Of a stretch of DNA of 32,000 nt, positions 2,633 to 19,784 are shown piece after piece (the first letter of the stretch is position 1; every line of letters starts with the position of its first letter). The position numbers and the translations under genes are program-made. This DNA comes from Candidatus Iainarchaeum sp. (GTDB lineage Archaea; Iainarchaeota; Iainarchaeia; Iainarchaeales; CSSED10-239), in NCBI GenBank assembly GCA_037441475.1, contig JBBISB010000001.1, positions 607,465-639,464 on the forward strand. The letters run 5' to 3'. A model generated the notes under the pieces. That model did no database searches and was not told the DNA's origin. It saw only the letters and a program-made list of their open reading frames with translations.

Positions 2633-3534
2633 AACTTCTTTTGAAACTGGTTAACCCAAAAGGAAAGTGTCTCAGGAGAGAATACCCCTTCTTCTGTTAT
2701 AAACTTATTTATCAAGTCACTTGGAACAATATCAAAGGCTGGGTTTCTAATTTTAAGTTTTTCAGGTCTTGTTTCTTTTTCCCAAACTTCATCAATATCT
2801 CTTTCTTCCACACTTTGAACAAATGACAAAAGATCGTTTGTTTCAACACAGTGTGTTGAGGTTAAAACAACATGGCTTGTCTTAAATTCTTTTGAAGCAA
2901 GACTAATAGCATGTGTCCCTAGTTTATTCATAATTGATCCGTCTGAAAAAACAACATCTGCTCCTGTAAAAAAATAATCAATTGGCTTAAGATAATGAGT
3001 AACTGATGCGTCTGTTATAAGTGTTGTCTTTATACCGTAATCAGAAAGATTTTTAGCAGTTATTCTTCCTTGATACCTTGGTCTTGTCTCTGTACAAAAA
3101 ACTTCAAAATCAATTCCTCTATCAAAGGCTTTCTTAAAAGCATTCTCAACTAAGGTAGAGTGGCAGTGTGTTAATACCTTTGATCCATTAACAATCAATT
3201 GAGAGGCCATCTCTGATATCCTTAAATTACCATCTTCTGTTTTTTCTTGGTATTTTTCAATCTCTAAAACAAGCTCTTCTGTGTTATTTGAATTCTTTTT
3301 AATCTTTTGATAAATATAGCTCATGGAGTTTCTAAGCTTAGGCTCGTTTGGTCTTTGGATAACCAAGTGATTAATATTCTCTTTTATCTCTAAAATAAGA
3401 TTTTCTCCAAGCTTATCTGTATGTCTTAAATACTCTAAAATACCTTTGATGGCTGCAATTTCAATGTTACTTGCCCCTTGTATCTTAATATCTTTGATGT
3501 CTTTTGCTATTTTTTGTATGTTTTTATCTATCAT
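2629..3534 (-). CDS. IF-2B alpha/beta/delta family protein (ribose-1,5-bisphosphate isomerase or aIF-2B-like)
   Basis: The 301-aa ORF shows the family pattern VLTHCHSTLV ... CTETRPRYQGR ... FFTGADVVFSDGSIMNKLGTHAISLASKEF. An AGGTGA Shine-Dalgarno-like site precedes the ATG. I cannot decide between isomerase and aIF-2B-like by eye. Confidence 0.8.
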   Translation of the reverse strand: MIDKNIQKIAKDIKDIKIQGASNIEIAAIKGILEYLRHTDKLGENLILEIKENINHLVIQRPNEPKLRNSMSYIYQKIKKNSNNTEELVLEIEKYQEKTEDGNLRISEMASQLIVNGSKVLTHCHSTLVENAFKKAFDRGIDFEVFCTETRPRYQGRITAKNLSDYGIKTTLITDASVTHYLKPIDYFFTGADVVFSDGSIMNKLGTHAISLASKEFKTSHVVLTSTHCVETNDLLSFVQSVEERDIDEVWEKETRPEKLKIRNPAFDIVPSDLINKFITEEGVFSPETLSFWVNQFQKKF

Positions 3535-3590
3535 TTGGCATCACCTTTTATAATAATGGTTAACCATATTATATTTAAAGGTTTCCTCAC

Positions 3591-3606
3591 TATAATATAT
3601 AATATA
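3591..3606 (+). promoter_or_regulatory. Putative TATA box/promoter for ftsZ
   Basis: tataatatataatata lies 47-62 nt upstream of the ftsZ start. GAGGTG at 3639-3644 sits 8 nt before the TTG start. The same ACTAT-TATA-like pattern recurs in other intergenic regions. Confidence 0.4.
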
Positions 3607-3652
3607 CTTATTTTCGATTATGATTTATTATATTTATTGAGGTGAAAATATC

Positions 3653-4708
3653 TTGACTACAAATCAACAAACCAATGCAGAGCTAGAGGAATTTTTAAAT
3701 GCATCATTACCTAAAATATGTGTTATAGGTGCAGGTGGAAGTGGAAACAACACTATTGAGAGATTAACAAATGTAGGTGTAGAGGGTGCCTTTACAGTTG
3801 CCTTAAACACAGATGCTCAAGCTTTAATAAGAGTTAATGCTGATAAAAAAATATTAATAGGTAAAAAAACAACCAAGGGCCTAGGTGCAGGATCAAACCC
3901 TGATGTTGGTGCTTCAGCTGCTGAAGAGTCAAAGGATGAACTAATGGATGTTATAAAAGGAAAAGATTTAGTTTTTGTAACATGTGGTCTTGGTGGAGGG
4001 ACAGGTACAGGTGCTGCTCCAGTTGTTGCAAGACTTGCAAAAGAACAAGGCTCCTTAACAATAGGTGTTGCAACCTTACCATTCGCTGTTGAAGGTAAAA
4101 AAAGAATTGAGAATGCCTTAGCTGGTCTTGATAAGTTAAAAAAAGAAGTTGATACTTTAATAATAGTTCCAAACGATAAGATTTTAGAGATTGCTCCTGA
4201 TCTTCCATTAAATGTTGCTTTCCAAGAGGTTGATAAAATCTTAACAGAGAGTGTAAAGGGTATTGTTGAACTTATAACAAGAGCAGGAATAATTAATCTT
4301 GATTTTGCTGATCTAAGAACCATTCTTTCAAAAGGCGGAATGGCAATGATAGGTGTTGGAGAATCAAATATTGAGAAAGGAAATGATGCAAGAGCAATGG
4401 AAGCTGTTGAAAATGCTTTAACCTCTCCTCTTTTAGATATTGATATTTCAAGTTCTACAAAGGCCTTAGTAAATGTTATTGGTGGTTCTGACTTAACCAT
4501 TAAAGAAGCTGAACTAATAGTTGATACTGTTGCTTTAAAGATAAATGAGGATGCTCACATTATCTGGGGTGCAATGATAGATGATAACCTTGCAAACAAG
4601 AAAGTTAAAGTTATGGTTGTTATTGCAGGTGCACATATACCTTACCTTGAAGATGGTTATGATTCCATGGACTCAAGGAGCATGGATCTTGACATAGATA
4701 GTGTTTAA
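3653..4708 (+). CDS. ftsZ: Cell division GTPase FtsZ
   Basis: The ORF contains GAGGSGNN and the tubulin signature GLGGGTGTGAAPVVA. TTG is the only possible start: the frame opens at 3641 after TGA at 3638-3640, and there is no in-frame ATG or GTG before the GTP-binding motif. Confidence 0.96.
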   Translation: MTTNQQTNAELEEFLNASLPKICVIGAGGSGNNTIERLTNVGVEGAFTVALNTDAQALIRVNADKKILIGKKTTKGLGAGSNPDVGASAAEESKDELMDVIKGKDLVFVTCGLGGGTGTGAAPVVARLAKEQGSLTIGVATLPFAVEGKKRIENALAGLDKLKKEVDTLIIVPNDKILEIAPDLPLNVAFQEVDKILTESVKGIVELITRAGIINLDFADLRTILSKGGMAMIGVGESNIEKGNDARAMEAVENALTSPLLDIDISSSTKALVNVIGGSDLTIKEAELIVDTVALKINEDAHIIWGAMIDDNLANKKVKVMVVIAGAHIPYLEDGYDSMDSRSMDLDIDSV

Positions 4709-6532: not shown

Positions 6533-7453
6533 ATGACAGAACAGTATGATTTAAAACTTTTAAAAAAAGCAGGTGAACTTAATCTCAAAACTCAAAAGTA
6601 TGCCCAAAAAATAATAAAGGTTGGGTGTGATCTTTCAAGAGTTGGTGTTGAGATAGATAAGTACATCTTAGATAACGGTGCAGTCCCAGCATGGCCAGTT
6701 AACCTTTCAATCAACAATGAGGCTGCCCACAACTCCTATGATTTAGAAAACCCAGTCATCTTAAAAGAAGAGGATATCTTAAAGGTGGATGTTGGAGTTT
6801 CCATGGATGGCTTTATAGCAGACTCAGCTCAAACAATAATCTTTAATAAAAAACATGAGGCCTTAAAGGATGCAAGTTTAAAGGCTCTTTCTTCTGTTAA
6901 AAAATATTTAATTGATAATTACAAAACAGGAAAAATATCTGACATAGGAAAAATCATTGAACAGGAAATAACCTCTCGTGGCTTTAAACCAATCAGAAAC
7001 CTAACTGGTCATGCTATTGAAAGGTTTGAACCACATGCCTCTCCAGCTATCCCTAACACAATAAACGATATGCACATTCCTTTAACAGAGATAAATCTTC
7101 CCTTTGCAGTTGAACCTTTTGCCTCAACTGGTGATGGTTTTGTAACTGAGGCTGAAAAGATATTAATCTTTCAACATATAGAGGATAGGCCAATAAGAAA
7201 CAAGGATGCAAAATTACTTTTAGAGGAGATACACAAGTATCAAGGAACTCCTTTCTCAGAATACTGGATAGGTAAGACATTAAACACTTTCCAAAAAAGA
7301 TATGCTTTAAGAGAGCTTTTAAAAAATGAAATCATCTCAAGCTTCCCTGTCTTAGTTGATAGAAAGAACAGTTTTGTTTCTCAAGCAGAAACAACCTTTG
7401 TTATTGACAAAAAAGAAGGTCTTATAGATTTGGTGAAAATTGATGAGTTATAG
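6533..7453 (+). CDS. map: Methionine aminopeptidase, type 2 (archaeal, peptidase M24)
   Basis: Metal-ligand contexts are present: LKVDVGVSMDGFIADSAQT, LTGHAIERF, PFAVEPF and SQAETTFVI. At 306 aa it is typical of archaeal MetAP. Confidence 0.9.
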   Translation: MTEQYDLKLLKKAGELNLKTQKYAQKIIKVGCDLSRVGVEIDKYILDNGAVPAWPVNLSINNEAAHNSYDLENPVILKEEDILKVDVGVSMDGFIADSAQTIIFNKKHEALKDASLKALSSVKKYLIDNYKTGKISDIGKIIEQEITSRGFKPIRNLTGHAIERFEPHASPAIPNTINDMHIPLTEINLPFAVEPFASTGDGFVTEAEKILIFQHIEDRPIRNKDAKLLLEEIHKYQGTPFSEYWIGKTLNTFQKRYALRELLKNEIISSFPVLVDRKNSFVSQAETTFVIDKKEGLIDLVKIDEL

Positions 7454-8411
7454 TGAGGCCTTTTCCAAGAAAGGTATTTTAAAAATTTCTTTAATTGCTT
7501 TTTCAATAGTTATGTGGATGTATTTCTATACTTCCTCAAACATCTCTTTAAAGGCATTAATAGTTTTCAATCTTCCTCTTTTAGTTAATTCCTTTTTAAC
7601 CCTAGACTTTTTATTCTTACTTCTATTCTTCCCAGTCACTTCTGCCATATGTATAGCCCTTTCCATTGGTAAACAAAGAAACCTAGATTTACTAGAGGTT
7701 TTCTTAGGTATAGCAAGTGGTTTTTTAATTTCTTTTATATTTTTTGGTTTTTCATTAAATTTCTTAATATTCATACTCTTCTACACAGCAGCTCACCTAA
7801 TCTTATCTCTCTTAACATACAATAAGTTTAAGGAAAGAGATAAGCTTAGTGTTCTTTCAAACTATGCAAACACAAAGATAAGTCTTCTTTTAACCTTAGC
7901 TTTATTTCTGGTTGTTTTTTTAATAATTTTACCAAACCAAGCAAGCTATGCTCAAGGAATGCAAGAGGGTATTGTTAATGTTTTTGTAGGTGAGGACATA
8001 GGTAACTGGCTTGGAACCTCTTACAGCATAAGTAAAGCAAGCACAGTTTCAGCTGTTAATTTTATTGTTGACTCTCCAGAGTTTAGAGATTTAAAAAGAG
8101 TGCAAGACCCTGTTGTTTACAAGTATGTTGATTATTTAGAGGATTTACAAGCAGAAGCTTCTAAAAAAACAACTAAAGAAGATATTGAAAAGATATATGC
8201 AAACCTAAACACAACTGAGATTAAAACACAAGTCTTAAGTGCAATTTCAAGCATGCCTCTAATGATAGTTGTAACAAAGTTCTTTGCTTTGTTTTATGCT
8301 TTAATAATAGCTTCAATGGCTCAGATTTATTTTTCAATTTCATTTTCTTTATTTGGTTTATTGTATGTTTTTATTTTCTCAAAGGTTTTTAATAACAAGA
8401 GGGATGAGTAA
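7443..8411 (+). CDS. Polytopic membrane protein, unknown function
   Basis: There are four to five N-terminal TM helices, a soluble loop of about 100 aa (NQASYAQGMQEGIV...TEIKTQVLSAISS), then two C-terminal TM helices. The start overlaps the end of map; the track gives TTG 7440, and ATG 7443 is likelier. Confidence 0.6.
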   Translation: MSYSEAFSKKGILKISLIAFSIVMWMYFYTSSNISLKALIVFNLPLLVNSFLTLDFLFLLLFFPVTSAICIALSIGKQRNLDLLEVFLGIASGFLISFIFFGFSLNFLIFILFYTAAHLILSLLTYNKFKERDKLSVLSNYANTKISLLLTLALFLVVFLIILPNQASYAQGMQEGIVNVFVGEDIGNWLGTSYSISKASTVSAVNFIVDSPEFRDLKRVQDPVVYKYVDYLEDLQAEASKKTTKEDIEKIYANLNTTEIKTQVLSAISSMPLMIVVTKFFALFYALIIASMAQIYFSISFSLFGLLYVFIFSKVFNNKRDE

Positions 8412-8441: not shown

Positions 8442-9767
8442 ATGAAAAAAATAGTTTTAATTTTCTTAATGGTTATCTTAATATCAACAAACATCTTCTC
8501 CTTATCTTTGTTTGGAGCACAGGATATTTCAAGAAAATACCTTTCTGAAAATGACATGATAGATACCTTTACTCAACCTAAGATAGTTTGTGAAAAGAAA
8601 GATTACTTTGTAATACCAATCATTAATCCCTTAGGAGAGCCTGTTCTCTTCATCCCAATCTCAATTGAGAGCTCAGATCTTTTTTTAAGCAAAACAGATT
8701 CTTTTAATATAAAACTTATAAAAACAGGATACCTTGTAAAGCAATTAAGAAACTCAGACTCCAGTAACTATTTATCCCCTCAACTAATAGATAGAATAAA
8801 TTCTTTAATAACTTCCTTAAACTCAAAGAAAGCACAATTAAATGGTCTTTTACAAAAGAACTATTCTTTCCCTGTAAGGGAGCAGCTTACAAAAACTATA
8901 AACCAGATAGATGTTTTAATAGTCTATTTAACAGACTTAAAAGAAAACTCTTCCAATCTTTTAAACTCACAAAATAGTTTCTTATCCTCTCCTAACTGCG
9001 ACTCTACGGCTTCTTTACTTTCTTCCTTTGATACTTCTTTTGAAGGATATAAAGAGCTTTCACAAATTTCCTTACAGTACATACAATCAACTGAAGCTTT
9101 AGTTACAAGACTTGTTGCTGATGAAACAATACCTGCTCAAGAGATTTCAGGAATTGTGAGTGTAGCCTCTCCTCCACAAAACCTAAACTCACAGGTAAAT
9201 TACATTTTTGAAAGCTTTTCTTCTACCAGTGCCTTTTACTCCAAGCAATCAAATGACTTGAAGGGTGTTAATGGTGATAGAAAAATAAAAATATATATTG
9301 ATAATCTTTCTTTAAGAAAAGAAAGTGTTGATTTAAAAAATCTTTTAGAAAAATATGATCCTTCCTTTCCAAACTATTCAAACCTTGATTCTGTAGTTAA
9401 AACAATTTTAGATCAGCAGTATAGAACAAGCTGGGTTGAACAAACAGAAGTTGAAAATGTTTTTAAAACCTATAATGAGATTAACGAGCTTACAAAGAAT
9501 GCTAGATACTCAGATGCAATTACAAAGGTTTCTTCTTTAAAAAAATCAGCTTTAAAGGTCCTAGAATCAGGTTTAATGGAAGAAGAGCCAAATGAGATAA
9601 GTAATACCTTTTACTATATTTTTGTAGGTGTAATTATTTTAATGCTTATAATCTTTTTAATAATCATAAAAAAGAAAAGTAAAGAGAGACCTTCAGTTTA
9701 TAAAAAAGCAAAAACAAAGAAGGAGAGGGATGGTCTTTTTACTTACGACGATCCTTTAATTTTCTAA
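8442..9767 (+). CDS. Type-I membrane protein with a large helical ectodomain, unknown function
   Basis: It has a signal peptide (MKKIVLIFLMVILISTNIFSLSLFG), a Ser/Asn/Leu-rich ectodomain of about 370 aa, a C-terminal TM (FYYIFVGVIILMLIIFLIII) and a basic tail of about 30 aa. AGGA precedes the ATG. Confidence 0.6.
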   Translation: MKKIVLIFLMVILISTNIFSLSLFGAQDISRKYLSENDMIDTFTQPKIVCEKKDYFVIPIINPLGEPVLFIPISIESSDLFLSKTDSFNIKLIKTGYLVKQLRNSDSSNYLSPQLIDRINSLITSLNSKKAQLNGLLQKNYSFPVREQLTKTINQIDVLIVYLTDLKENSSNLLNSQNSFLSSPNCDSTASLLSSFDTSFEGYKELSQISLQYIQSTEALVTRLVADETIPAQEISGIVSVASPPQNLNSQVNYIFESFSSTSAFYSKQSNDLKGVNGDRKIKIYIDNLSLRKESVDLKNLLEKYDPSFPNYSNLDSVVKTILDQQYRTSWVEQTEVENVFKTYNEINELTKNARYSDAITKVSSLKKSALKVLESGLMEEEPNEISNTFYYIFVGVIILMLIIFLIIIKKKSKERPSVYKKAKTKKERDGLFTYDDPLIF

Positions 9768-11771
9768 TTTTTCTTTTCTTTTATAGTCTCTTAAATATTT
9801 ATTAAACTCAAGATGGTCTTTTGGAGGGTTCTTTCTTAAACCTTCAATAAACTTTGTTCTGTTTGTAATTATTTCTGTCATCTTTGTTTTAGAAATATTA
9901 TGTTCATTACAGATTTCTTTTAAAACATCACTATTGTATACAAGAGGTGCCTCTTTTTGGAAAAGATCACTTTGGGAGGTTGCACTTTTCTCTGCAAATT
10001 TATCTGTTGATTTATAGATAGGGTTATACTCAATTTTACCTTCTTTTTTATTATACCTTCTAATTTCGTCTATCTCCTTAACTTCTCTGTGCCCTTCTTC
10101 CCCAATACCTGTAAAACCAGTTACAATAACTATATCAAGGCTTGTTAATAACGAAGGATCAAGAGATATTGGAGGTGTAGTTATTCTTGTAACCAAGGCT
10201 TCAACACTCTTTGAGTGAACAGTTGATAGAGAACAGTGACCTGAGGCCATACCCTGGAACATAAGAGACATCTCTTCTCCCCTTACTTCACCTATGATTA
10301 AGTAATCTGGTCTTTGTCTGAATGATTCTTTTAAAAGATCATTCATAGTAACTTCACCATATTTCTTACCATTCTGGTCAGGTGGTCCAAAACCTGTTCT
10401 TGTTATCTGTGGAATCCAGTTATCAAGCAAAAGATTAATTTCTCTAGTGTCCTCAATTGATACCACTCTTTGTGCATCTGGTATAAAGGAGGATATAACA
10501 TTTAAAAGTGTGGTTTTACCGCCAGCTGTTGGTCCTATAAGCACCATGTTTTTCTTAAACTCAATAAGTGTCCAAAGGTATGCAACAATCTCTGATGTAA
10601 CTGTCTTGGAGTTAACAATATCAATTGTTGTTAATGGTTTTTGTGGGAATTTTCTAATAGTGAAAGTAGGTCCTCTTGTGGAGACGTTTGTTGTAAGTGT
10701 TGCATTAACACGAGAACCGTCTGGCAGAATAGCATCTAAAAGAGGAGATGCATATGAAACATAACTTTTACAAAGGTGTGCCATCTTAATAATAAACTGT
10801 TGAAGTTCATTTTCAGATTCTAAAACTAAGTTAGTAACAATGTGTCCATATTTTCTATGAACAATGAAGATAGGTATACTTATACCATCACACTCAATAT
10901 CTTCAATTAATGGATCGTGCATAAGTGGTTCTATCTTATCAAGTCCACTTACTTGTCTTACAATATAATAAACAATCTTGTCTTTCTGTTCTTTTGAAAG
11001 CTTTACTTTGTTTCTTGTAAATATCTTTTCAACTAAGGTGTACATCTGTGATTCATCAGTTAAGTCTGCTAAGGATATCTTGTTTATTAAAGCATCTCTG
11101 GTGTCTTTTAATATCTTTTCTTCTTCAGCAGTAAGTTCAGGTTCTGCAACCACATATACTCTTTCATGTTCGTTCTCTCTAATAAAGGCATATGCAAAAC
11201 CATGTATCAAGACTTGATAATTTTCAGGTAACAGTTCCTTAGGTGGATCAAAGATTGGTCTTATATCTCCTGGAACAGAGGCTTTTTCTAAAGTTATTTT
11301 TTCTTCTTCTTTCTTTTTATTAAAGATTCTTGTAAATATACTTTCTTTTGTTTTTATAAGGTTTCTATCACTTGCTTCTTTTTGTTTTATGACCTCAACC
11401 TCAATTTTTGCTTCTTCTTTTTTAATAGTTTTTTCTTTAGCTGAGAAAAGTTCTTTAAAAAATTTATTAAAGCTTGATCTATTGTGTGCCTTATAGATAG
11501 GAATGTTTCTTTGTTCAAGTGATTTTGAAAATTCAGAAAAAGAGTTGTTACAATCAACAAAGGCATTGACTGCCTTAATGTCGATCTTCTTAGTTTCGTG
11601 GAATATTTTTTTTTCTTTAAGTCTAATAACTACATCTTTTGCAGTTATTTTTCCTTGAAAGTATTCTTCAAATATTTTTTTTTCTTCAATGTTTCTAGAG
11701 TCTTCTATAGTTTTTAGTTTATTGACTTTGTCTGTAAGTTCTTTTGTGACTTTTAAAGAAGGAAAAACCAT
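9756..11771 (-). CDS. Type II/IV secretion-family ATPase (FlaI/ArlI/PilB-like) with an N-terminal extension
   Basis: Motifs present are Walker A LIGPTAGGKTTLLN, Walker B/Asp box PDYLIIGEVRGEE, His box GHCSLSTVHS and the FlaI-type N-domain RVYVVAEPELTAEEEKIL. About 190 Lys/Glu-rich residues precede the conserved core. Confidence 0.9.
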   Translation of the reverse strand: MVFPSLKVTKELTDKVNKLKTIEDSRNIEEKKIFEEYFQGKITAKDVVIRLKEKKIFHETKKIDIKAVNAFVDCNNSFSEFSKSLEQRNIPIYKAHNRSSFNKFFKELFSAKEKTIKKEEAKIEVEVIKQKEASDRNLIKTKESIFTRIFNKKKEEEKITLEKASVPGDIRPIFDPPKELLPENYQVLIHGFAYAFIRENEHERVYVVAEPELTAEEEKILKDTRDALINKISLADLTDESQMYTLVEKIFTRNKVKLSKEQKDKIVYYIVRQVSGLDKIEPLMHDPLIEDIECDGISIPIFIVHRKYGHIVTNLVLESENELQQFIIKMAHLCKSYVSYASPLLDAILPDGSRVNATLTTNVSTRGPTFTIRKFPQKPLTTIDIVNSKTVTSEIVAYLWTLIEFKKNMVLIGPTAGGKTTLLNVISSFIPDAQRVVSIEDTREINLLLDNWIPQITRTGFGPPDQNGKKYGEVTMNDLLKESFRQRPDYLIIGEVRGEEMSLMFQGMASGHCSLSTVHSKSVEALVTRITTPPISLDPSLLTSLDIVIVTGFTGIGEEGHREVKEIDEIRRYNKKEGKIEYNPIYKSTDKFAEKSATSQSDLFQKEAPLVYNSDVLKEICNEHNISKTKMTEIITNRTKFIEGLRKNPPKDHLEFNKYLRDYKRKEKLEN

Positions 11772-11802
11772 ATTTCATCAATATTCCCTATAATGATTTA
11801 AT

Positions 11803-12141
11803 CTATTTAACTTCAGGACCGTTAACTGTTTCTGTCTTTTTATTATAAAGGTCCTTTAAAGTATTTAACTTGTCGCTAATATCGTTTATTGTCTCAGCAA
11901 TCTCGTTCCAGATTATCTTTCTTTGATTTGTATTGTCATCTAAGTTTTTCTGGTTAACTTCCTGCATTGTAGCATAAGTAAACTTTGTAATTTCTTCTTT
12001 TTCAAGCTTACTTTTTGTGTTTTTAATTTCATTAGCAATTGTTTCTTTATGTTCCTCAAGAGCTCTTAAAATCTCTAATTTTGCAACAATTCCATTACTT
12101 TTTGTAACAATGTTACCTATATTTTCTTTAATTTCGTTCAT
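11803..12141 (-). CDS. Small cytoplasmic coiled-coil protein, unknown function
   Basis: It is about 112 aa from the ATG preceded by AAGGTG (the track starts 12 nt earlier at 12153). The sequence shows a heptad-like K/E/N-rich pattern with no TM segment. It lies 31 nt upstream of the ATPase. Confidence 0.5.
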   Translation of the reverse strand: MNEIKENIGNIVTKSNGIVAKLEILRALEEHKETIANEIKNTKSKLEKEEITKFTYATMQEVNQKNLDDNTNQRKIIWNEIAETINDISDKLNTLKDLYNKKTETVNGPEVK

Positions 12142-12228
12142 AATGACTAACACCTTTTTAAAATTGTTTAATATAATATATTATAAATTATTAGTTCGTT
12201 TACTTTATAAAGCTATCTTTTTATAGGT

Positions 12229-12690
12229 TTATTCTCTTACAATCCTTTTTTCCTTATCATTATATATCTTAAAATAATACTTAAGCTTATCTTTTGAAGA
12301 GATATTAAAAGAGCATTCTCCAAAAAGAATATTTTCTAAAACCTCTGCCTTTTCTAAAACAATTGTTTCTTGATCATTAATAATTGAATAGTTAAGATCT
12401 TGAAAATTACTTAAATAATAGTAATCTCCATCAAAATAGATGTTACATATCTTACTATTATAGTTATTAGATTTAATATATTCTTTAAAAGAAACATTCA
12501 ATTGGTTTAAGTTACTTTCATCTATGTTATTCTCTGTAATATACTTTAGTTCATTTTGATAGTTTGAAAGGATAATTTGTGCTTTATTCTCCTTATAGTT
12601 AATATTTGTTGAAATTAAGAATAACATGGTTGTCATTATCATTATAATAACAGCAATTATAATGTATGTAAACCCTTTTTGTTTCTTCAT
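12229..12690 (-). CDS. Pilin-like protein with a class III (type IV prepilin-like) signal peptide
   Basis: The N-terminus MKKQKG|FTYIIIAVIIMIMTTMLFLIS has a short basic leader, a Gly, then a hydrophobic helix of about 20 aa. It is small (153 aa), has two Cys in the globular part, and lies in the ATPase cluster. Confidence 0.6.
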   Translation of the reverse strand: MKKQKGFTYIIIAVIIMIMTTMLFLISTNINYKENKAQIILSNYQNELKYITENNIDESNLNQLNVSFKEYIKSNNYNSKICNIYFDGDYYYLSNFQDLNYSIINDQETIVLEKAEVLENILFGECSFNISSKDKLKYYFKIYNDKEKRIVRE

Positions 12691-12696
12691 AAGTAT

Positions 12697-13068
12697 TTAA
12701 CTCCAGATTAATATGTTTAATGTCTTATTACTATCATAAAAATAATAGTTTACAGCATATAAAGCTGACTTTGAGGGAACAGTATCTCCAAAATTATTAC
12801 AGTTCTCCTGATTTTCTAAAAAATCACAAAGCACAATTGAAAAGTTAGTGTCCATGTAAGTGTAAAGAGAGTTATAGATTGCAGCTGCATTATCAGAAGA
12901 TACCATTTCTCTAAAACTATTTTCTTGTGCTTTTAAGCTAACAACCTCTGATATCTTATCAGTAATTATGTTTTCCTTGTAGTCGTTCTTTGTATAACTA
13001 CTAAAGAGAGTGATCATAAACATCAAGAGTATCATTATAGCCATAACAGCTTCAAGTGTTTTAATCAT
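12697..13068 (-). CDS. Small pilin-like or pseudopilin-like protein (non-canonical N-terminus)
   Basis: MIKTLEAVMAIMILLMFMITLF is a hydrophobic helix at the extreme N-terminus with a TLE motif but no Gly-containing leader. It is 123 aa with a Cys pair (LCDFLENQENC). Only 6 nt separate it from each neighbour. Confidence 0.45.
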   Translation of the reverse strand: MIKTLEAVMAIMILLMFMITLFSSYTKNDYKENIITDKISEVVSLKAQENSFREMVSSDNAAAIYNSLYTYMDTNFSIVLCDFLENQENCNNFGDTVPSKSALYAVNYYFYDSNKTLNILIWS

Positions 13069-13074
13069 ATTTAT

Positions 13075-14049
13075 TTACCTTAGCATTCCATACATCATAT
13101 TCTCAACAATAGACATGTATTTTTCCTTATCATCCTCTTCTATCAAATACTCAGGAGGCATAGCATAATAGGCAACTCTGTTTGAGTTACTTAAAACTAT
13201 TAAAGGAAAGACACCTCGCTCTCCATAAGATACATTAGTATCTTTGAAAAGTCTTGACCCATAATCAAGTTTTAGAGGATTTGTCATTGGTTTTGTAACT
13301 TCAACTATTGCAAAGTCATCCTTTACCTCAAGATAACTTCTTAAACCATAAACATTAGGGTGATCTGAAGAGGGTATTAAAACACCGTTGTTTGAAAGTG
13401 GTCTTTTAAACTCCATTTGTAATCCTCCAGGAACAGTGTGTATCTTTGTTTCACAATCTTTAACCTGACAATAGTTTGTTAAATAGCTAACTCCTAGAAA
13501 ATCATCAAACCTTATCATGTAACCGTCTTTATCAAGTCTTGCCCACCCACTTATAATGTTTCCATCAAAACTACCTTCAACATCTCCTTTTGTAAGAAGC
13601 ATGTCCATTGAGGTTTCAGTTTCAGTTCCAGCATCTCCTATCCAGACTAGTCTTCCACCTTTTGCCACATAGTTTACAAACATCTCAAGTTTAGGTGTTG
13701 ATATCTTTCTTGATCTTGTAACAATTACCATTGCTTCTTTTTTAAGTTTTTCTTCACTAAGGTAGTTTATATTTTCAAGCCTCACGTTCATTCCAATAAT
13801 CTTATTATCCCTTATGGTTCTTTCAAGAAGGTAGGGGTTTCCAAGTCCTTCTTTATCTGCTGGGTTATAGACTATTAATATACTTGGTTGTTGTTTACCA
13901 GTAACAAGTGTCTGGGTTCCCCAATAAAGAGAGCACATGCCAGGTATATTTCTACATCTCATAGTTCCTGCCCACACAAATAGGTATAATAGTATTATCA
14001 CCATTAAAATAACAATTACAGTTTTCCAAATTAATTTTTTATTCATCAT
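13075..14049 (-). CDS. N-terminally anchored extracytoplasmic protein, unknown function
   Basis: The likely start MMNKK is preceded by GAAGG (the track starts at 14067). There is a single N-terminal TM (LIWKTVIVILMVIILLYLFVWAG), then a Cys-containing alpha/beta-looking domain (PSILIVYNP..., EAMVIVTRS..., FVNYVAKGGRLVWIGDAG). Confidence 0.55.
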   Translation of the reverse strand: MMNKKLIWKTVIVILMVIILLYLFVWAGTMRCRNIPGMCSLYWGTQTLVTGKQQPSILIVYNPADKEGLGNPYLLERTIRDNKIIGMNVRLENINYLSEEKLKKEAMVIVTRSRKISTPKLEMFVNYVAKGGRLVWIGDAGTETETSMDMLLTKGDVEGSFDGNIISGWARLDKDGYMIRFDDFLGVSYLTNYCQVKDCETKIHTVPGGLQMEFKRPLSNNGVLIPSSDHPNVYGLRSYLEVKDDFAIVEVTKPMTNPLKLDYGSRLFKDTNVSYGERGVFPLIVLSNSNRVAYYAMPPEYLIEEDDKEKYMSIVENMMYGMLR

Positions 14050-14154
14050 AATACCTTCTTTTATCAAAAATATATCTTTTCTTACATAAATTATATAAGA
14101 GTAAGTTATTTAATAGTTTTCTATATATATTATTACTGTAGAGGTGTTATTATT

Positions 14155-14319
14155 ATGAAACTTAAGCAAATGAAAAATACAAGTCAAGGCCCAAGCAGTG
14201 TTATTGGAATTATGAAGTTTAATGAAAGTTTATCTGGTTATAAGCTTTCTCCTGAATTGGTTATTGCTTTATCTGTTATTTTTGTAGTTGTTATTTTAGT
14301 TTTAAAACTTATAATTTAG
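14155..14319 (+). CDS. Protein translocase subunit Sec61-beta (archaeal SecG)
   Basis: This 54-aa ORF is below the ORF-track cutoff. GAGGTG lies 9 nt upstream. MKLKQMKNTSQGPSSVIGIMKFNESLSGYKLSPELVIALSVIFVVVILVLKLII matches the archaeal Sec61beta layout: a basic N-terminus, a P-S-S-x-G-(I/L) motif, K-(I/L)-S-P, then one C-terminal TM. Confidence 0.7.
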   Translation: MKLKQMKNTSQGPSSVIGIMKFNESLSGYKLSPELVIALSVIFVVVILVLKLII

Positions 14320-15848
14320 TTAGGTTTTATTAAGACTTTAACAATTTCTTCTCTTCCTTCACTGGTCAGGTATTTTGAGGCTCTTTCAAGAAGCTTAAAA
14401 TTTCCTGCAAAGTTATATTCTCCAATTATTATTTCTTCTTTGTTATTGTATATCTTAATATAATACTCGTAACTGTTTTCTTCTTGGTATTTTTCAAGAG
14501 TTTTAATTATTTTTTCATAAGTTATTAATGTTTCTTTGTTTTTGTAGTTTCTAATAGTAGGATAAGTAACATCCTCTAGATTAAGTCTTAGTTTAATGAA
14601 TGTTTTTTCTTCACAAATTAATCTAAAGCCATCTGTTATTTCTTCATAGCTACATTCTGCACTTTTGTTATCACTATTAAAAAAATCAAGTCCAACATAT
14701 TTATTTAAAATTTCATTTTCTAAAACAACTTTGTTTGCACTTGTAAAAGAAATATTAAAATCAAGATTTAAATAAAAGTCTATATTTTCGTCAGCATCTG
14801 CAACTATTATCATTTCCGCAAGATTTGGAAAAATAACTGCTCTGTGTTTTTGAGTGCTGTCCTTTATTATCCCTGGTTTATTATCAGTAACAGAGGAGTT
14901 GTTTAAAGAGAGAGGATAAGTAATATCTATTCTCCCAATATTCTCTCTTTCAAGATGTGTTTCTATCTCAAGATTTTGACCATTAACAGTTACATCAAAA
15001 TAATTAGTTTCAACTAAATTTCCTGTTTTTTTAAGATAATTATCAGCATACACTTCAAAGCTACTTAAAAAATAAGCCTCTACATTTGTAATTATAATTT
15101 TTCCTTTATTAATTGATGTTTGGTTTAATGTATCTACCACATATCCATTTAATGTACAGTTAACAACTCCCTTGTAGTTACTTGAAATTGAAAGGTTAAC
15201 CCAAAGGTTTTCGTCCACATTAACATCAACTGTGTCTTTTAAAAAAAGTCCTGATGAATTTCTATCATAAAGGTTAAGGTTGTTTCCTGAAAGTTCACAT
15301 AATGAAAAATTATTTGTATTTACATAATTAAAAAAAATATTAACATCAAGTGGTTCAAAAATAAATTGAGAATAGAAATTTGAATATTCTTCTTTTGTCT
15401 CAATAGTTGTTTCTTGATAAGCATATGCTTCTCCCTTAAAACTAATAATTTCTCCTTCTTTTAAACTAAAGTTTCTAAGATTATTTTCATCTATAAAGTC
15501 TTCTTTGAAAAGTAAGGTTTTTGTATTTATCTGGTTTGAATCAAAGTTATAAAATTTTGCCTTTTGCTTTACTGTTCCATACGCCATATTATTGTCTAAG
15601 ATATAGTTTGTGTTTGCTCTTCCGTAATTATTATCAATTTCTAAAAAATAACTATATACCTTATTTTCATCTGTAGAAAAAATAGTATACACATCTATCT
15701 TTTCTATAAGATCAGAGTAAACCATTTTAGAGGTGTATATCTCTTCTTGGCTTGTAATATCAGGTAGAAATCTTGGTATGGCTGTAATAACTATTAATAC
15801 AACAAAAACAAATATCACAAAGGAAACTATCCAGTCAACATGCTCCAT
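14316..15848 (-). CDS. Large N-terminally anchored extracytoplasmic protein, unknown function
   Basis: The 510-aa ORF has an N-terminal hydrophobic helix (MEHVDWIVSFVIFVFVVLIVITAIP) followed by an Asn/Tyr/Phe-rich domain that looks beta-rich. It is the first gene of the minus-strand cluster. Confidence 0.6.
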   Translation of the reverse strand: MEHVDWIVSFVIFVFVVLIVITAIPRFLPDITSQEEIYTSKMVYSDLIEKIDVYTIFSTDENKVYSYFLEIDNNYGRANTNYILDNNMAYGTVKQKAKFYNFDSNQINTKTLLFKEDFIDENNLRNFSLKEGEIISFKGEAYAYQETTIETKEEYSNFYSQFIFEPLDVNIFFNYVNTNNFSLCELSGNNLNLYDRNSSGLFLKDTVDVNVDENLWVNLSISSNYKGVVNCTLNGYVVDTLNQTSINKGKIIITNVEAYFLSSFEVYADNYLKKTGNLVETNYFDVTVNGQNLEIETHLERENIGRIDITYPLSLNNSSVTDNKPGIIKDSTQKHRAVIFPNLAEMIIVADADENIDFYLNLDFNISFTSANKVVLENEILNKYVGLDFFNSDNKSAECSYEEITDGFRLICEEKTFIKLRLNLEDVTYPTIRNYKNKETLITYEKIIKTLEKYQEENSYEYYIKIYNNKEEIIIGEYNFAGNFKLLERASKYLTSEGREEIVKVLIKPN

Positions 15849-16013: not shown

Positions 16014-17468
16014 ATGGAAACTTTTGAAAAGAAAAACATTGTTAAAAACATTGGATGGCTTACTCTTTCAAAGATACTTGTTTATCTTCTATCAATCATA
16101 ACCATAACTGTTGTTCCAAGGTATCTTGGTGTTGAAGCTTATGGTCAACTTAACTTTGTTCTTTCTTTTTTAGGTCTCTTCTATATTTTAACAGACCTTG
16201 GTATTAATACCTTAATCTTTAGGGATGTTTCAAAGGATAAAAATAAGTTAAGTAGTTATTTTAATAATTTCTTATTATTTAAGATTACTTTATTTATTTT
16301 AGTTTCTATAATCATCTTACTTTTAACTTTGGTTTTAAATAAACCTTTAATCGTAAATCAACTTTTCTATCTTTTAATAGCTTATTTGTTTTTAGCAGTT
16401 ATTGCAGATTTCTTAATTGTCTTCTATAACTCAATGCAGGAAAATAAGTTTTATGCTATTTATGAGTTTTCTATGAAGTTTTTTTATGTTTTATTTTTAT
16501 TTATTGCTATTTATTTTAATCTTAGGTTAATAGGGGTTTTCTTAGCTCAGTTATTTTCTTTACTCGTATCTGTTTTAATAATAATTTATTTTTTTAAAAG
16601 GTATATTAAAAAAATAGATTTAAAATATAATCTTAGGTTAATAAAAATAAAGCTATACATCTCTTGGCCATTTGCTTTAAACTATTTGTTTTACAATATA
16701 TATTTTAATTTTGATAAAATATTTATTTCTTTAATAACAAATGATACAAATGTTGGGCTTTACTCTATCAGTTATTCTTTTTTAGGTTTTATAATGGCTG
16801 CTGTTGGTTTAATTTCTTTAGTTTTTTTCCCTGTTCTTTCCAAGCATTCTTTTTCTTCATCTTTACCTAACATTTATAACAAATACTTAAGGTTAGTTTT
16901 ATTAATCTCAGTTCCAATGTCTTTAGGGGCTATCCTTTTATCTAAAGAGATTATCACTCTTGTTTTTGGGGTAAGTTACTTGGGGGGAGACCTTCCTTTT
17001 AAGATAATAATGTTCTTTTGTTTAATATATTCTCTTAACATGACCTTTAATAATTTATTTTCAACCTATGGTTATGAAAAATATTTTTTAAAGCTTCTCT
17101 TTATAGCTACAATTTCAAATGTTGTTTTAAACATTATGATTATTCCTTTTTTAGGTATTGTTGGTGCTGCACTTACCACATTTCTTTCAGAAATAATAAT
17201 ATTAATTGGTTCTCTTATCTTTATTAAAAAAAAGATTCCTGGTCTTAAGATAATAGATAATTTTATCTATCCTCTTTTCTCAGGCCTTCTAATGGTTTTA
17301 GGTATCTTTGTGCTTAAGTTATTTACACCATCTGGTTTTCTTCAAAACAACTATGATGTTTTAATATATGTCTTCTTTGGTGCCATTATATATCTTCTGG
17401 CAATATTTTTGTTTAAGGTTATTAGAAAAGAAGATATTAAAGAAATTTTTTCTCTTATTAAAAAATAA
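16014..17468 (+). CDS. Wzx/RfbX-type oligosaccharide flippase (MOP superfamily polysaccharide biosynthesis protein)
   Basis: The 484-aa protein has about 12-14 TM helices. Its N-terminus KNIGWLTLSKILVYLLSIITITVVPRYLGVEAYGQLNFVLSF is typical of the polysaccharide-biosynthesis flippase family. Confidence 0.8.
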   Translation: METFEKKNIVKNIGWLTLSKILVYLLSIITITVVPRYLGVEAYGQLNFVLSFLGLFYILTDLGINTLIFRDVSKDKNKLSSYFNNFLLFKITLFILVSIIILLLTLVLNKPLIVNQLFYLLIAYLFLAVIADFLIVFYNSMQENKFYAIYEFSMKFFYVLFLFIAIYFNLRLIGVFLAQLFSLLVSVLIIIYFFKRYIKKIDLKYNLRLIKIKLYISWPFALNYLFYNIYFNFDKIFISLITNDTNVGLYSISYSFLGFIMAAVGLISLVFFPVLSKHSFSSSLPNIYNKYLRLVLLISVPMSLGAILLSKEIITLVFGVSYLGGDLPFKIIMFFCLIYSLNMTFNNLFSTYGYEKYFLKLLFIATISNVVLNIMIIPFLGIVGAALTTFLSEIIILIGSLIFIKKKIPGLKIIDNFIYPLFSGLLMVLGIFVLKLFTPSGFLQNNYDVLIYVFFGAIIYLLAIFLFKVIRKEDIKEIFSLIKK

Positions 17469-17474
17469 TTTCTT

Positions 17475-18947
17475 TTACTCAATATTAATAATTAGGTTCG
17501 AACCTACATTTAGTGTTTCATTACTTCTAAAAGGATGTTTGTAACTAACATTTATAGCGCATGCTCTTGTGTTGTTTACAAGGCTCCCAACCAAGGAAGG
17601 GTCAATTGCATTTATTGACATAAGTACTTCTGGATTTGTGTTTCTAATAACCCTATTATTTGCAAGAGCATTCTCTGAAATATAGATAAGGTTATTACAA
17701 TCTTTTCTAGTGACATCAAGATCCACTACTTTAATCTCAATAATCTCAATATCAATTGTGCTTTCATTATCAAGTTTTAAAGTAACATACTCTATGTTTG
17801 TAACATTATTATTAACATCGTAAATAAGCTTAATTGTGCTTTTATTTGTGCTCGCTGTAAAGTTTATGCTTGGTTCTTTAATAGTAAACTTAATAGGAAT
17901 TTCTTTTGCATCTTTAAAAATAGAACTTCTAAAAATAAGTTTTCCTTCTATTAAATCATCAGTTGCTGTTTGAGGCACAACAATAGATACTGGTTTTGTA
18001 ACATTTTTTTTAGCATCAAGTAATATATTTCCTTGAGGATAAGTAAACCATTGATTAACATCTTGATTGCTATTACCACTAACCTCTACTTCCATTGTAA
18101 GGTCTGTTATTGGTAAGCTGTTCTTTGAGTTTCCAATAGTTATTGTAAAGTTTTTACTCTCTCCACTTTTAAGTTCTCCAGAAAGTGTGCCTGTAATAGG
18201 GATGTCTGGTTCTTGTATAATCTCAAATGACTTTGAAGTTTCTTTTTTCTTATACTTAACTCTAACACTTATTTTATTACTTTTTTTACTAGTCTCTTCA
18301 ACAGTATATCTAACATGTATAGTCGATTCTGTTCTAGGAGATAGAACTACTTGTTCTTTACTTATAGGATCTGAATAACTATCAGTGTATGCAAAGTTCC
18401 ATTTTTTAACATCCCCTTCAATTACAAGATCATCTATTGTGTATGCTGTATTTTCAGAGGTATTTCTATAATGAATAATCAATGTTGCTGTTTGTCCTGC
18501 AAATACTTTTTCTGGAAAATTAATTGAATTTATGGTTAAAGGTATGTTCTTTTCAAGAGATACATCTTTTTTAGTTGTTTCTTTAATATTTATTTCTTTT
18601 CCATTTTCAGATGCATATCCAGATGATTGAACAGAATAATAATAATTCCCTTTCTTAATCTTTTCAGTTGTTCCATTTTGTAGATTTAAAACAACTTTTG
18701 TAACCATAGGATCTTTTGCAATCTTTATTACTGAAGGTATTGTTTCTCCTTCTGTGTTTTTAACATTAAAAGTTACATCCACTTTACTTAAAAATAAATA
18801 GTTTGCACCATAGTAAATAGCCAAACCAATCAATATGATTACAAGTACAACTGTTACTAAGTTATTACTCTTTGGTTTACTTTCATTTCCTTTATTATAA
18901 TAATTGGAAGAAGAGCCTCCACCAAAAGGATCAAAATTATTTCCCAT
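17475..18947 (-). CDS. Type-II single-pass surface protein with several beta-sandwich-like modules, unknown function
   Basis: It has a Gly/Asn-rich cytoplasmic tail of about 29 aa (MGNNFDPFGGGSSSNYYNKGNES), one TM (LVTVVLVIILIGLAIYYGANYLF), a carboxypeptidase-regulatory-like first module (VDVTFNVKNTEGETIP...GNYYYSVQSSGYAS), and CARDB-like modules (FPEKVFAGQTATLIIHYRNTSEN; LKSGESKNFTITIGNS). Confidence 0.6.
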   Translation of the reverse strand: MGNNFDPFGGGSSSNYYNKGNESKPKSNNLVTVVLVIILIGLAIYYGANYLFLSKVDVTFNVKNTEGETIPSVIKIAKDPMVTKVVLNLQNGTTEKIKKGNYYYSVQSSGYASENGKEINIKETTKKDVSLEKNIPLTINSINFPEKVFAGQTATLIIHYRNTSENTAYTIDDLVIEGDVKKWNFAYTDSYSDPISKEQVVLSPRTESTIHVRYTVEETSKKSNKISVRVKYKKKETSKSFEIIQEPDIPITGTLSGELKSGESKNFTITIGNSKNSLPITDLTMEVEVSGNSNQDVNQWFTYPQGNILLDAKKNVTKPVSIVVPQTATDDLIEGKLIFRSSIFKDAKEIPIKFTIKEPSINFTASTNKSTIKLIYDVNNNVTNIEYVTLKLDNESTIDIEIIEIKVVDLDVTRKDCNNLIYISENALANNRVIRNTNPEVLMSINAIDPSLVGSLVNNTRACAINVSYKHPFRSNETLNVGSNLIINIE

Positions 18948-19784
18948 TTACTTTATCTCTCCTTTCTTTGATAAAGCGTATCTTGTGCTTAAAAGTTCAT
19001 CTTTTAGCTCTTTAATAAGTTCAAGGGCAATTTTTTCTTTCTCAAGATTACTTTTTTCAACTTCAATAACGTCTGAGGTTAGTTTCTTAATTACTCTATG
19101 CATCTCAGTTATTTCAGTTTCAACTTTTATTAAGTGTACATTTAACATAACTGAGTTCTTTTCATTTATCTTAATTCTTTTTATAAGTTCATTTTCAAGG
19201 TTTGTTATAAGTGATTCTTTGGCCTTTTCCTTAGCTTCTAGCCATTTAAAGTCCTGTACTTTTTTTCTAAGTTCCTTTAAGTTTTCTTCCTTATCCTGTA
19301 TTATCCTTAACAGCTCTTCAATTGATTTCTTTTGGTTTGTCATATCCACATACTTATATTTAATCTTTGTCTTTGACTCTTCAATAAAACCAATAAATAA
19401 AGTTAATTCATTTTTAAGAAGTTCTTCAAGATCATAAAAAATCTGTGGCCTTGTGATTGCTTCCTTAAGGTTTACAAGATCATGGTTTATTTCTTTTTTA
19501 TTAGTCTCTAAAAATATCTGTGAGTTTATCTTGTTTGACATCATTAAGAAGTTTTGATAAAACAAATCCATTTTAGAAACATTCAGTTCAGAGGAATACT
19601 GGATAGCTGTATATTTATTAAGCTCTAAGATCTTTCTTGCCAGTGAATCTGTTTGTGTTTTGATCTCAGATAAATTATCTATAAGTTTTTTTTTTTCAAG
19701 CTTATAAAGAGGGGTTGACATAAGCCTATATATCTCTCTTGAAGCAACTAAGATTTCATCCAAGTATTCTATTATGTTTTTCAT
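18948..19784 (-). CDS. Cytoplasmic coiled-coil protein, unknown function
   Basis: The 278-aa K/E/L-rich sequence looks all-helical and has no TM or signal peptide. Its TAA stop (18948-18950) directly abuts the ATG of the downstream surface-protein gene (18945-18947). Confidence 0.6.
   Translation of the reverse strand: MKNIIEYLDEILVASREIYRLMSTPLYKLEKKKLIDNLSEIKTQTDSLARKILELNKYTAIQYSSELNVSKMDLFYQNFLMMSNKINSQIFLETNKKEINHDLVNLKEAITRPQIFYDLEELLKNELTLFIGFIEESKTKIKYKYVDMTNQKKSIEELLRIIQDKEENLKELRKKVQDFKWLEAKEKAKESLITNLENELIKRIKINEKNSVMLNVHLIKVETEITEMHRVIKKLTSDVIEVEKSNLEKEKIALELIKELKDELLSTRYALSKKGEIK

Follow-up and report, generated by a model that had tools for sequence, protein, structure and literature searches.

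A secretion ATPase without a neighbouring platform in Candidatus Iainarchaeum: probably one half of a split Tad-like type IV pilus system

What becomes of a type IV filament ATPase when no platform protein is encoded beside it? This question is raised by a stretch of 32,000 nucleotides (nt), hereafter the window, from Candidatus Iainarchaeum sp. (Iainarchaeota/Diapherotrites, DPANN), which has a GC content of about 29% and in which a PilB/GspE/FlaI-family ATPase of 671 amino acids (aa) is preceded by three small genes that we call p123, pil153, and cc112. An original prediction took the ATPase and five unrecognisable partners for an orphan module, potentially a novel machine that works without a platform. 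Alternatively, the platform may be encoded elsewhere in the genome. We consider it likely that the window encodes the ATPase part of a Tad-like archaeal type IV pilus (T4P) system which, in one Diapherotrites/Iainarchaeota clade, has been split into two loci: locus A, comprising the four genes just named, and locus B, which carries a platform and canonical pilins.

The ATPase (9756-11771, minus strand) was recognized by its match to the Pfam domain T2SSE (8.3e-31), by its motifs, and by synteny. Its Walker A (GPTAGGKTT), Walker B (DYLIIGEVRG), and His box (GHCSLSTVHS) motifs are intact, and its closest solved relatives are GspE of A. fulgidus (2OAP, 3e-93), FlaI (4II7, 2e-63), and CpaF (8e-39). 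Among NCBIfam models the best match was to FlaI (4.9e-93), at 312.7 bits, below the cut-off of 550. The conserved core spans residues ~190-610 and follows a K/E-rich N-terminal extension (residues 1-190) that is missing from 2OAP and FlaI. We found full-length identities of 57-76% in six syntenic relatives and of 88% over a partial seventh (L005), and an identical protein on Logan contigs from SRR11582162/63; among named organisms the closest are Ca. Forterrea multitransposorum (complete genome CP045477.1, ATPase identity 76%) and metagenome-assembled genomes (MAGs) labeled "Ca. Iainarchaeum/ainarchaeum". Outside this clade the next ATPases, with 48-52% core identity and lengths of 740-900 aa, belong to other Diapherotrites. 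In Forterrea, the N-terminal extension contains imperfect 18-nt tandem repeats (L003 10370-10439; the window equivalent lies within 11200-11771), which fits the remark of Probst and Banfield (2018) that repeats caused assembly errors in a Forterrea 'secretion-related ATPase' (PMC5905446). That remark is the sole mention of the locus in the literature on pili of Diapherotrites, Iainarchaeum, Iainarchaeota, or Forterrea, where we found no earlier description of it.

Two canonical T4P operons of other Diapherotrites (L016 and L017) reveal what the small genes upstream of the ATPase are. These operons start with two KG↓(I/V)SPVIATVLL pilins (the arrow marks the cleavage site), a large anchored surface protein, and a gene of 120-130 aa; they continue with a gene of 166-176 aa, a KGQ↓T protein of 235-245 aa, a coiled-coil protein of 111-113 aa, and the ATPase; and they end with two T2SSF genes, one TadB-like (289-290 aa) and one TadC-like (284-288 aa). 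We found that the clade profile of p123 matches the 120-130-aa gene (L017 8063-8425, 1.5e-11; L016 8009-8401, 8.8e-9), while that of pil153 matches the 166-176-aa gene just downstream (L017 8426-8956, 1.1e-9; L016 8406-8906, 4e-8). Since these matches fall in the same order as in the window, p123-pil153-cc112-ATPase corresponds to the upstream part of such an operon without TadB and TadC. At least these two partners are therefore not unrecognisable, as had been thought, because they are homologous to adjacent genes of canonical ATPase-TadB-TadC operons.

The pil153 gene (153 aa; 12229-12690, minus strand) encodes a class III-like signal, MKKQKG↓FTYIIIAV, as originally noted. All seven orthologs in which the N-terminus is aligned share the KGFTY string, behind leaders of varying length, and an eighth (L014) has it only if an earlier start is used; the homologs in the canonical operons start KKA↓QAY and KNA↓QTY. 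We judged class III signals by eye and with a simple script, and this crude scan found pil153 to be the only pilin-like candidate in the 32 kb, while also flagging a 69-aa antisense ORF (open reading frame) and the first transmembrane (TM) helix of a polytopic neighbor, poly323. Together with the T2SSE/FlaI-family match, the KG↓FTYII signal upholds the earlier view of a type IV filament ATPase accompanied by pilin-like partners. The p123 gene (123 aa; 12697-13068, minus strand) encodes an N-terminal hydrophobic helix beginning MIK[ST]xE[AV] and conserves F52, R53, C81, C90, and D112. For both proteins, Pfam and NCBIfam gave only weak N-terminal matches of the GspH/ComGD/ComGE type. From these features, pil153 is probably a minor pilin, and its clade identity of 28-61% seems typical of fast-evolving pilins; p123 appears to be a pilin-like accessory of uncertain processing.

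The third small gene, cc112 (112 aa from an ATG, 11803-12141, minus strand; 116 aa from a GTG at 12153), encodes a cytoplasmic coiled-coil protein with neither a signal peptide nor a TM segment. Its clade profile matches a 101-aa protein encoded between an ATPase and a T2SSF gene at a Nanoarchaeia locus (L018 11520-11825, 2.7e-7), and the 111-113-aa proteins occupy the same position in L016 and L017, so that cc112 is probably an ATPase-associated accessory. The Nanoarchaeia contig itself (JAPDLS010000003.1) holds two ATPase-T2SSF sets within 15 kb, at 358-4011 and 10001-14010. No partner encoded in the window had an above-threshold Pfam or NCBIfam match, and none was assigned to the Epd, Aap, or Ups accessory families; p123, pil153, and cc112 are undescribed, lineage-specific families inside a recognizable system.

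Between pil153 and cc112 lies an intergenic region (12142-12228) that was proposed to carry a promoter. The TATA-like strings and the AAGGTG are there, while the reported gap of 75 nt holds only to the GTG start and is 87 nt to the ATG. The region may act as an internal promoter of cc112 and the ATPase, although this is a weak pointer because DNA of about 25% GC yields TATA-like strings and AAGGTG by chance.

We scanned the window ORFs of at least 125 aa for T2SSF domains, A24 peptidases, FlaH, and FlaF/G and, in agreement with the original prediction, found no match to any of them. Nor is there space for a T2SSF remnant beside the ATPase, since the 3' end of the convergent gene s441 overlaps the 3' end of the ATPase gene by 12 nt. 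The description of the locus as an orphan without a platform nevertheless arose because the view was limited to 32 kb. A TadC profile search recovered, besides L016-type proteins, a distinct group at 37-43% identity. Three of its members were viewed in context (L021-L024) and sit in a recurrent arrangement: an MTS methyltransferase, a DRG GTPase, TadB, TadC, three or four proteins of 147-162 aa, and a convergent tRNA-splicing endonuclease. Here TadB and TadC are two T2SSF proteins of about 290 aa, and the small proteins are canonical pilins with a KG↓VSPLIATILL signal (for example MLLNIRLNKKG↓VSPLIATILLVAVSL), with sub-threshold matches to Pfam Pilin_N (1.8e-4 and 0.018). No T2SSE gene was found in the flanks of L021-L024 (up to 10 kb; less at contig ends).

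A metagenome scan added 15 further TadC copies, most with the same neighbors where the contig extends. The locus-B arrangement recurs in 20 loci (L021-L040), many of them partial or on short contigs, with the full order from MTS to endonuclease in nine, and a BLAST match to the ATPase was found in none of the 20. Relatives in the clade therefore carry TadB and TadC with three to four class III pilins at a second locus that lacks an ATPase, and the idea of an orphan, platform-less machine is not supported in view of this arrangement.

Loci A and B occur in the same assemblies. In one MAG (GCA_964463155.1; CAYXAY01), TadC (P0256) is encoded on CAYXAY010000001.1 (L024) and the window-type module (L007) on CAYXAY010000002.1. 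TadB, TadC, pilA1, and DRG of L036 and a window-type ATPase (P0117) apparently share one contig of 977,747 bp. Three further assemblies are connected through series of protein accessions: TadC MDD3976241 and ATPase MDD3975621 are 620 numbers apart, with p323 (the gene upstream of p123) at MDD3975617, four numbers from the ATPase, as gene order predicts; TadC MDD3178023 and p323 MDD3178661 are 638 apart; and TadC MFH0905810 and ATPase MFH0905901 are 91 apart. The genomes holding both loci bracket the window phylogenetically (ATPase identities of 57%, 61%, 61%, and ~72%), so that the parsimonious expectation would be that the window's genome has locus B as well.

We then asked how locus A compares with systems already described. 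It shares with the L016 and L017 operons the ATPase lineage (48-49% core identity), the long N-terminal extension, which is even longer there, the homologs of p123 and pil153 in order, and, immediately ahead of the ATPase gene, a coiled-coil gene of ~110 aa. It differs in that TadB and TadC directly follow the ATPase in those operons, with KG↓VSP pilins upstream in the cluster, whereas in the window's clade TadB, TadC, and pilins have a locus of their own, no counterpart of the 235-aa KGQ↓T protein was found, and an unrelated gene runs convergently into the ATPase gene. Archaeal Tad-like pili, such as Haloferax PilB/PilC-PilA and Sulfolobus Aap/Ups, were classified by Makarova, Koonin and Albers in 2016 (PMC4858521). 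Like them, the system as seen in relatives that carry both loci has a PilB/FlaI-family ATPase, a TadC-type T2SSF platform (often encoded by two tadC-like genes), and fast-evolving class III pilins, the major ones often encoded away from the ATPase. The window ATPase has the Walker A, Walker B, and His box motifs of the group and lacks an adjacent T2SSF gene; in relatives, T2SSF genes lie elsewhere in the genome, in one case in the CAYXAY01 MAG, in another apparently on the 977,747-bp contig, and in three more in the assemblies linked by accession offset. While that classification treats the ATPase and TadC as one co-evolving module, here they are separated across a whole clade, and this separation, which leaves some pilin-like genes at each locus, is the unusual point of the system. 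The archaellum, whose ATPase belongs to the same superfamily, was rejected as an identity: the FlaI score stays below its cut-off, the ATPase is closer to GspE of A. fulgidus, and the window gave no match to FlaH, FlaJ, FlaF/G, or Arch_flagellin.

How might the two loci work together? Drawing on established knowledge of type IV filament systems, we propose that prepilins with class III signals would enter the membrane via Sec and be processed by a peptidase of the A24 type, which was not located here. A hexameric assembly ATPase of the PilB/GspE type, encoded at locus A with p123, pil153, and cc112, would dock on the cytoplasmic domains of the split platform, TadB and TadC, encoded elsewhere in the genome at locus B ahead of the three or four canonical pilins, and ATP hydrolysis would power the transfer of pilins out of the membrane and into the growing filament. 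The locus-B pilA proteins would be the major subunits, pil153 and perhaps p123 would act as minor or priming pilins, and cc112 would accompany the ATPase on the cytoplasmic side. The likely use of such a filament in a reduced DPANN cell would be adhesion to surfaces or host cells.

Several observations weigh against this two-locus reading. Locus B was seen in relatives, and its presence in the window's genome is expected rather than directly observed; likewise, the co-location on the 977,747-bp contig and the accession-offset links are inferred and not read from sequence. No TadC from the 671,531-bp window contig or the 839,632-bp Forterrea genome was among the 55 TadC matches, although this search was limited by its word index and failed to return even the TadC that the 977,747-bp contig does carry, so that its negative result is not informative. 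A second T2SSE ATPase could lie elsewhere, since the view covered ±10 kb at each locus and the 120 best ATPase matches. No prepilin peptidase (A24/PibD/FlaK/EppA) was found in the window or in the locus-B flanks. With regard to the small proteins, p123 has no canonical class III cleavage site, lacking G or A at position -1; for both p123 and pil153 a pilin fold is proposed from sequence; and the cc112 profile did not significantly match the coiled-coil proteins of L016 and L017 (hhalign probability 6%).

The gene order around locus A is conserved, as a check on related genomes confirmed: seven relatives share the whole neighborhood in synteny. It reads p278-p490-(wzx)-p510-Sec61b-p323-p123-pil153-cc112-ATPase and then, convergent to the ATPase, s441-poly323-MetAP-u164-L11-Spt5-FtsZ-aIF2B-PolB. 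Because the housekeeping genes are equally syntenic, adjacency within the clade says little about function. Identities within the clade suggest that locus A is under purifying selection, with the ATPase at 57-76%, cc112 at 52-81%, and the pilin-like genes at 28-61% (p123 34-61%).

All six minus-strand ORFs of the original prediction exist, and the 6-nt spacings between its middle genes (13069-13074 and 12691-12696) are real. The two largest partners, both N-anchored, are p323 (323/324 aa; 13075-14046) and p510 (510 aa; 14316-15848). The six genes do not, however, form one co-oriented run. A plus-strand gene for Sec61-beta (54 aa; 14155-14319), absent from the earlier gene list, lies between p323 and p510, overlaps the stop of p510 by 4 nt, and points away from p323, with one common intergenic region between them. 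Since this opposite-strand gene intervenes, p510 is a separate transcription unit. On these grounds neither gene is supported as a module partner, as p323 pairs with Sec61-beta phylum-wide, also in lineages without an ATPase nearby, and Sec61-beta cuts off p510.

The p323 family comprises 94 homologs, all annotated as hypothetical and without a Pfam domain, which come from Diapherotrites-type or unclassified archaeal MAGs where the source names an organism. An AlphaFold2 (AF2) model built from 74 sequences has a mean predicted local distance difference test (pLDDT) of 92.3, and its Foldseek matches in the PDB are to a ThuA-like protein (4pxy, 1.4e-7), the GIFT domain of IFT52 (5fms, 2.8e-6), and a GH42 trimerisation domain. 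Sub-threshold Pfam matches were to ABC_transp_aux, IFT52_GIFT, and DUF4350. The predicted structure thus points to a ThuA/GIFT-like fold of the class I glutamine-amidotransferase type. Four cysteines are conserved, two of them invariant and two present in at least 90% of the 74 sequences. Family members elsewhere include L013 11078-11920 and L015 11170-12018, and distant lineages have a tandem paralog of ~280 aa. In three distant Diapherotrites (33-34% identity) p323 is divergent from Sec61-beta and is followed by this paralog, and neither an ATPase nor a pilin-like gene lies within 10 kb; since the pair is kept where no ATPase is near, it is older than, and independent of, the adjacency to the ATPase.

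These observations bear on a reading that extends the module, in which p323 and possibly p510 were recruited as novel pilus accessories, for example as a periplasm-side stator or adhesion component. Such a recruitment would be compatible with the split system. In the seven clade members holding both genes, p323 lies 1-13 nt from p123 and the two are likely co-transcribed, as they probably are in the window across their 6-nt gap; p323 is also the best-conserved partner (47-78% identity), its cysteines suggest an extracytoplasmic domain, and a large surface protein fills the slot upstream of the p123 homolog in the canonical operons. Yet the three distant Diapherotrites keep p323 and its paralog at Sec61-beta away from any ATPase or pilin-like gene, the whole 20-kb neighborhood including polB, FtsZ, and L11 is syntenic, so that adjacency weighs little, and p510 is split off by the opposite-strand gene and conserved only in its N-terminal ~350-380 residues (27-52% identity). 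We regard such an extended module as unlikely and the membership of p323 in the pilus system as doubtful.

It is also possible that the two loci function independently of each other, the window ATPase serving secretion, DNA uptake, or retraction, while a different ATPase powers TadB, TadC, and the pilins. Some DPANN do have two T4P ATPase loci, the Nanoarchaeia locus L018 being an example, and a divergent second ATPase could exist outside the ranges given above. However, the genomes are small (0.67-0.98 Mb), every long contig is represented by a single one of the top ATPase matches, and no ATPase was found in the flanks of the 20 locus-B copies. Window-type ATPases are closest to the ATPase directly upstream of TadB and TadC in sister Diapherotrites, two pilin-like neighbors are conserved alongside them, and the ATPase (~48%) and TadC (~40%) have diverged to a comparable degree, which fits one ancestral operon that was later split. 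Independence of the two loci is for these reasons improbable. We see similarly little likelihood in a further reading, in which the ATPase locus has been fused, physically and in transcription, to the Sec61-beta/p323 pair, p323, made on one transcript with the minor pilins, would be a new extracytoplasmic pilus or attachment component, and the ATPase would be regulated apart from the platform; that low estimate also takes in a stronger version, in which the subclade of the window and Forterrea has lost locus B and the ATPase uses non-T2SSF partners.

The polytopic membrane protein poly323 (7440-8411, plus strand), the neighbor beyond s441, bears on whether the window could hold a true orphan module. 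Its family comprises 63 representatives at 50% clustering and has no Pfam match in 56 members. An AF2 model (pLDDT 93.9) is all-helical with 7-8 helices, and a Foldseek search of the PDB returned nothing with a PilC/GspF fold, the top TM-score being 0.2, to MsbA. As a T2SSF platform the protein was rejected, since hhalign gave 2-3% against TadB and TadC, where the TadB-TadC control gave 98-99%, and the fold did not match either. A distant family member adjoins an M24 peptidase (MetAP) and immunoglobulin (Ig)-like surface proteins, without an ATPase. Profile searches of PDB sequences with poly323, p323, pil153, and p123 returned nothing.

A new filament, attachment, or uptake machine without a T2SSF platform, in which p323, p510, and perhaps poly323 would replace it, could draw on the lack of T2SSF and A24 genes in the 32 kb, on the absence of a TadC match from the window's or the Forterrea contig, on the position of poly323, convergent beside the ATPase in each of the seven syntenic relatives whose sequence reaches it, and on a precedent, the ATPases of Thermoproteales subclade 4D, which are paired with 4-5-TM proteins unrelated to TadC (PMC4858521). 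That subclade resembles the window at first sight, with a secretion ATPase lacking a T2SSF neighbor and an unrelated polytopic protein nearby, but it has no pilins, whereas the window has pilin-like genes, the clade genomes encode a TadB/TadC pair elsewhere, and poly323 has an ATPase-independent context. We therefore consider this machine highly improbable: poly323 resembles TadB and TadC neither in profile nor in fold and occurs without an ATPase, the clade genomes carry TadB, TadC, and pilins elsewhere, p323 is tied to Sec61-beta rather than to the ATPase in other Diapherotrites, and p510 is transcribed separately.

Among the flanking genes, p323, p510, poly323, and s441 sit in neighbor blocks that are conserved independently, and none of the four is a demonstrated part of the pilus system. 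The s441 gene (8442-9767, plus strand), convergent to the ATPase, encodes a surface-like protein with a Sec signal peptide, a C-terminal TM anchor, and a basic tail. On the same strand, poly323 is packed tightly or overlapping with MetAP (M24), the secreted protein u164, and the C-terminally anchored s441, which looks like a conserved cell-envelope block. On the other side, upstream of Sec61-beta, p278 and p490 (17475-19784, minus strand) form a conserved block with p510. Of these, p278 is seemingly soluble and without a predicted TM segment; p490 combines an N-terminal tail and a single TM helix with Ig-like/Cep192-D4-like repeats; and p510, 510 aa in the window, has orthologs of 608-672 aa, its C-terminal part being variable or truncated. 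This block may be a cell-surface module, and we found no link between it and the pilus genes. Only the window (16014-17468, plus strand) and L006 have a Wzx/MOP flippase separating p490 from p510, while in L003, L004, L007, and L014, where the interval is covered, p490 is directly followed by p510; this pattern suggests a lineage-specific insertion of the flippase. With hhalign, no similarity was found between s441, p510, or p490 and the large surface proteins of L016 and L017, between p323, pil153, p123, or u164 and the 235-aa protein, or between u164 and the 134-aa/140-aa protein. Housekeeping genes in the window are PolB, aIF-2B, FtsZ, SecE, Spt5, L11, MetAP, Ogg, Pus10, fibrillarin/Nop5, and ProRS. 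Two adjacent plus-strand ORFs in different frames (28184-28588 and 28637-29014) match the SIS-2 domain and the C-terminal lid of the GKRP/MurQ-like family, respectively, and a frameshift or a sequencing error may have broken a single gene into this pair.

If the two loci do form one system, then the ATPase/TadC pair, which is usually treated as inseparable, can be split stably across a clade. The case also cautions window-based scans that a partner missing nearby is not the same as a partner missing from the genome. Two unannotated and well-modeled families have been characterized along the way: p323, ThuA/GIFT-like and linked to Sec61-beta, and poly323, whose helical membrane fold matches nothing in the PDB. 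Cell-cell contact is believed to be essential to DPANN archaea, with type IV pili as leading candidates for establishing it. For the Iainarchaeota clade that includes Forterrea, our results provide a testable list of parts for such a pilus, consisting of the ATPase locus, the TadB/TadC-pilin locus, two lineage-specific minor-pilin-like families, and a recurrent small coiled-coil partner of the ATPase.

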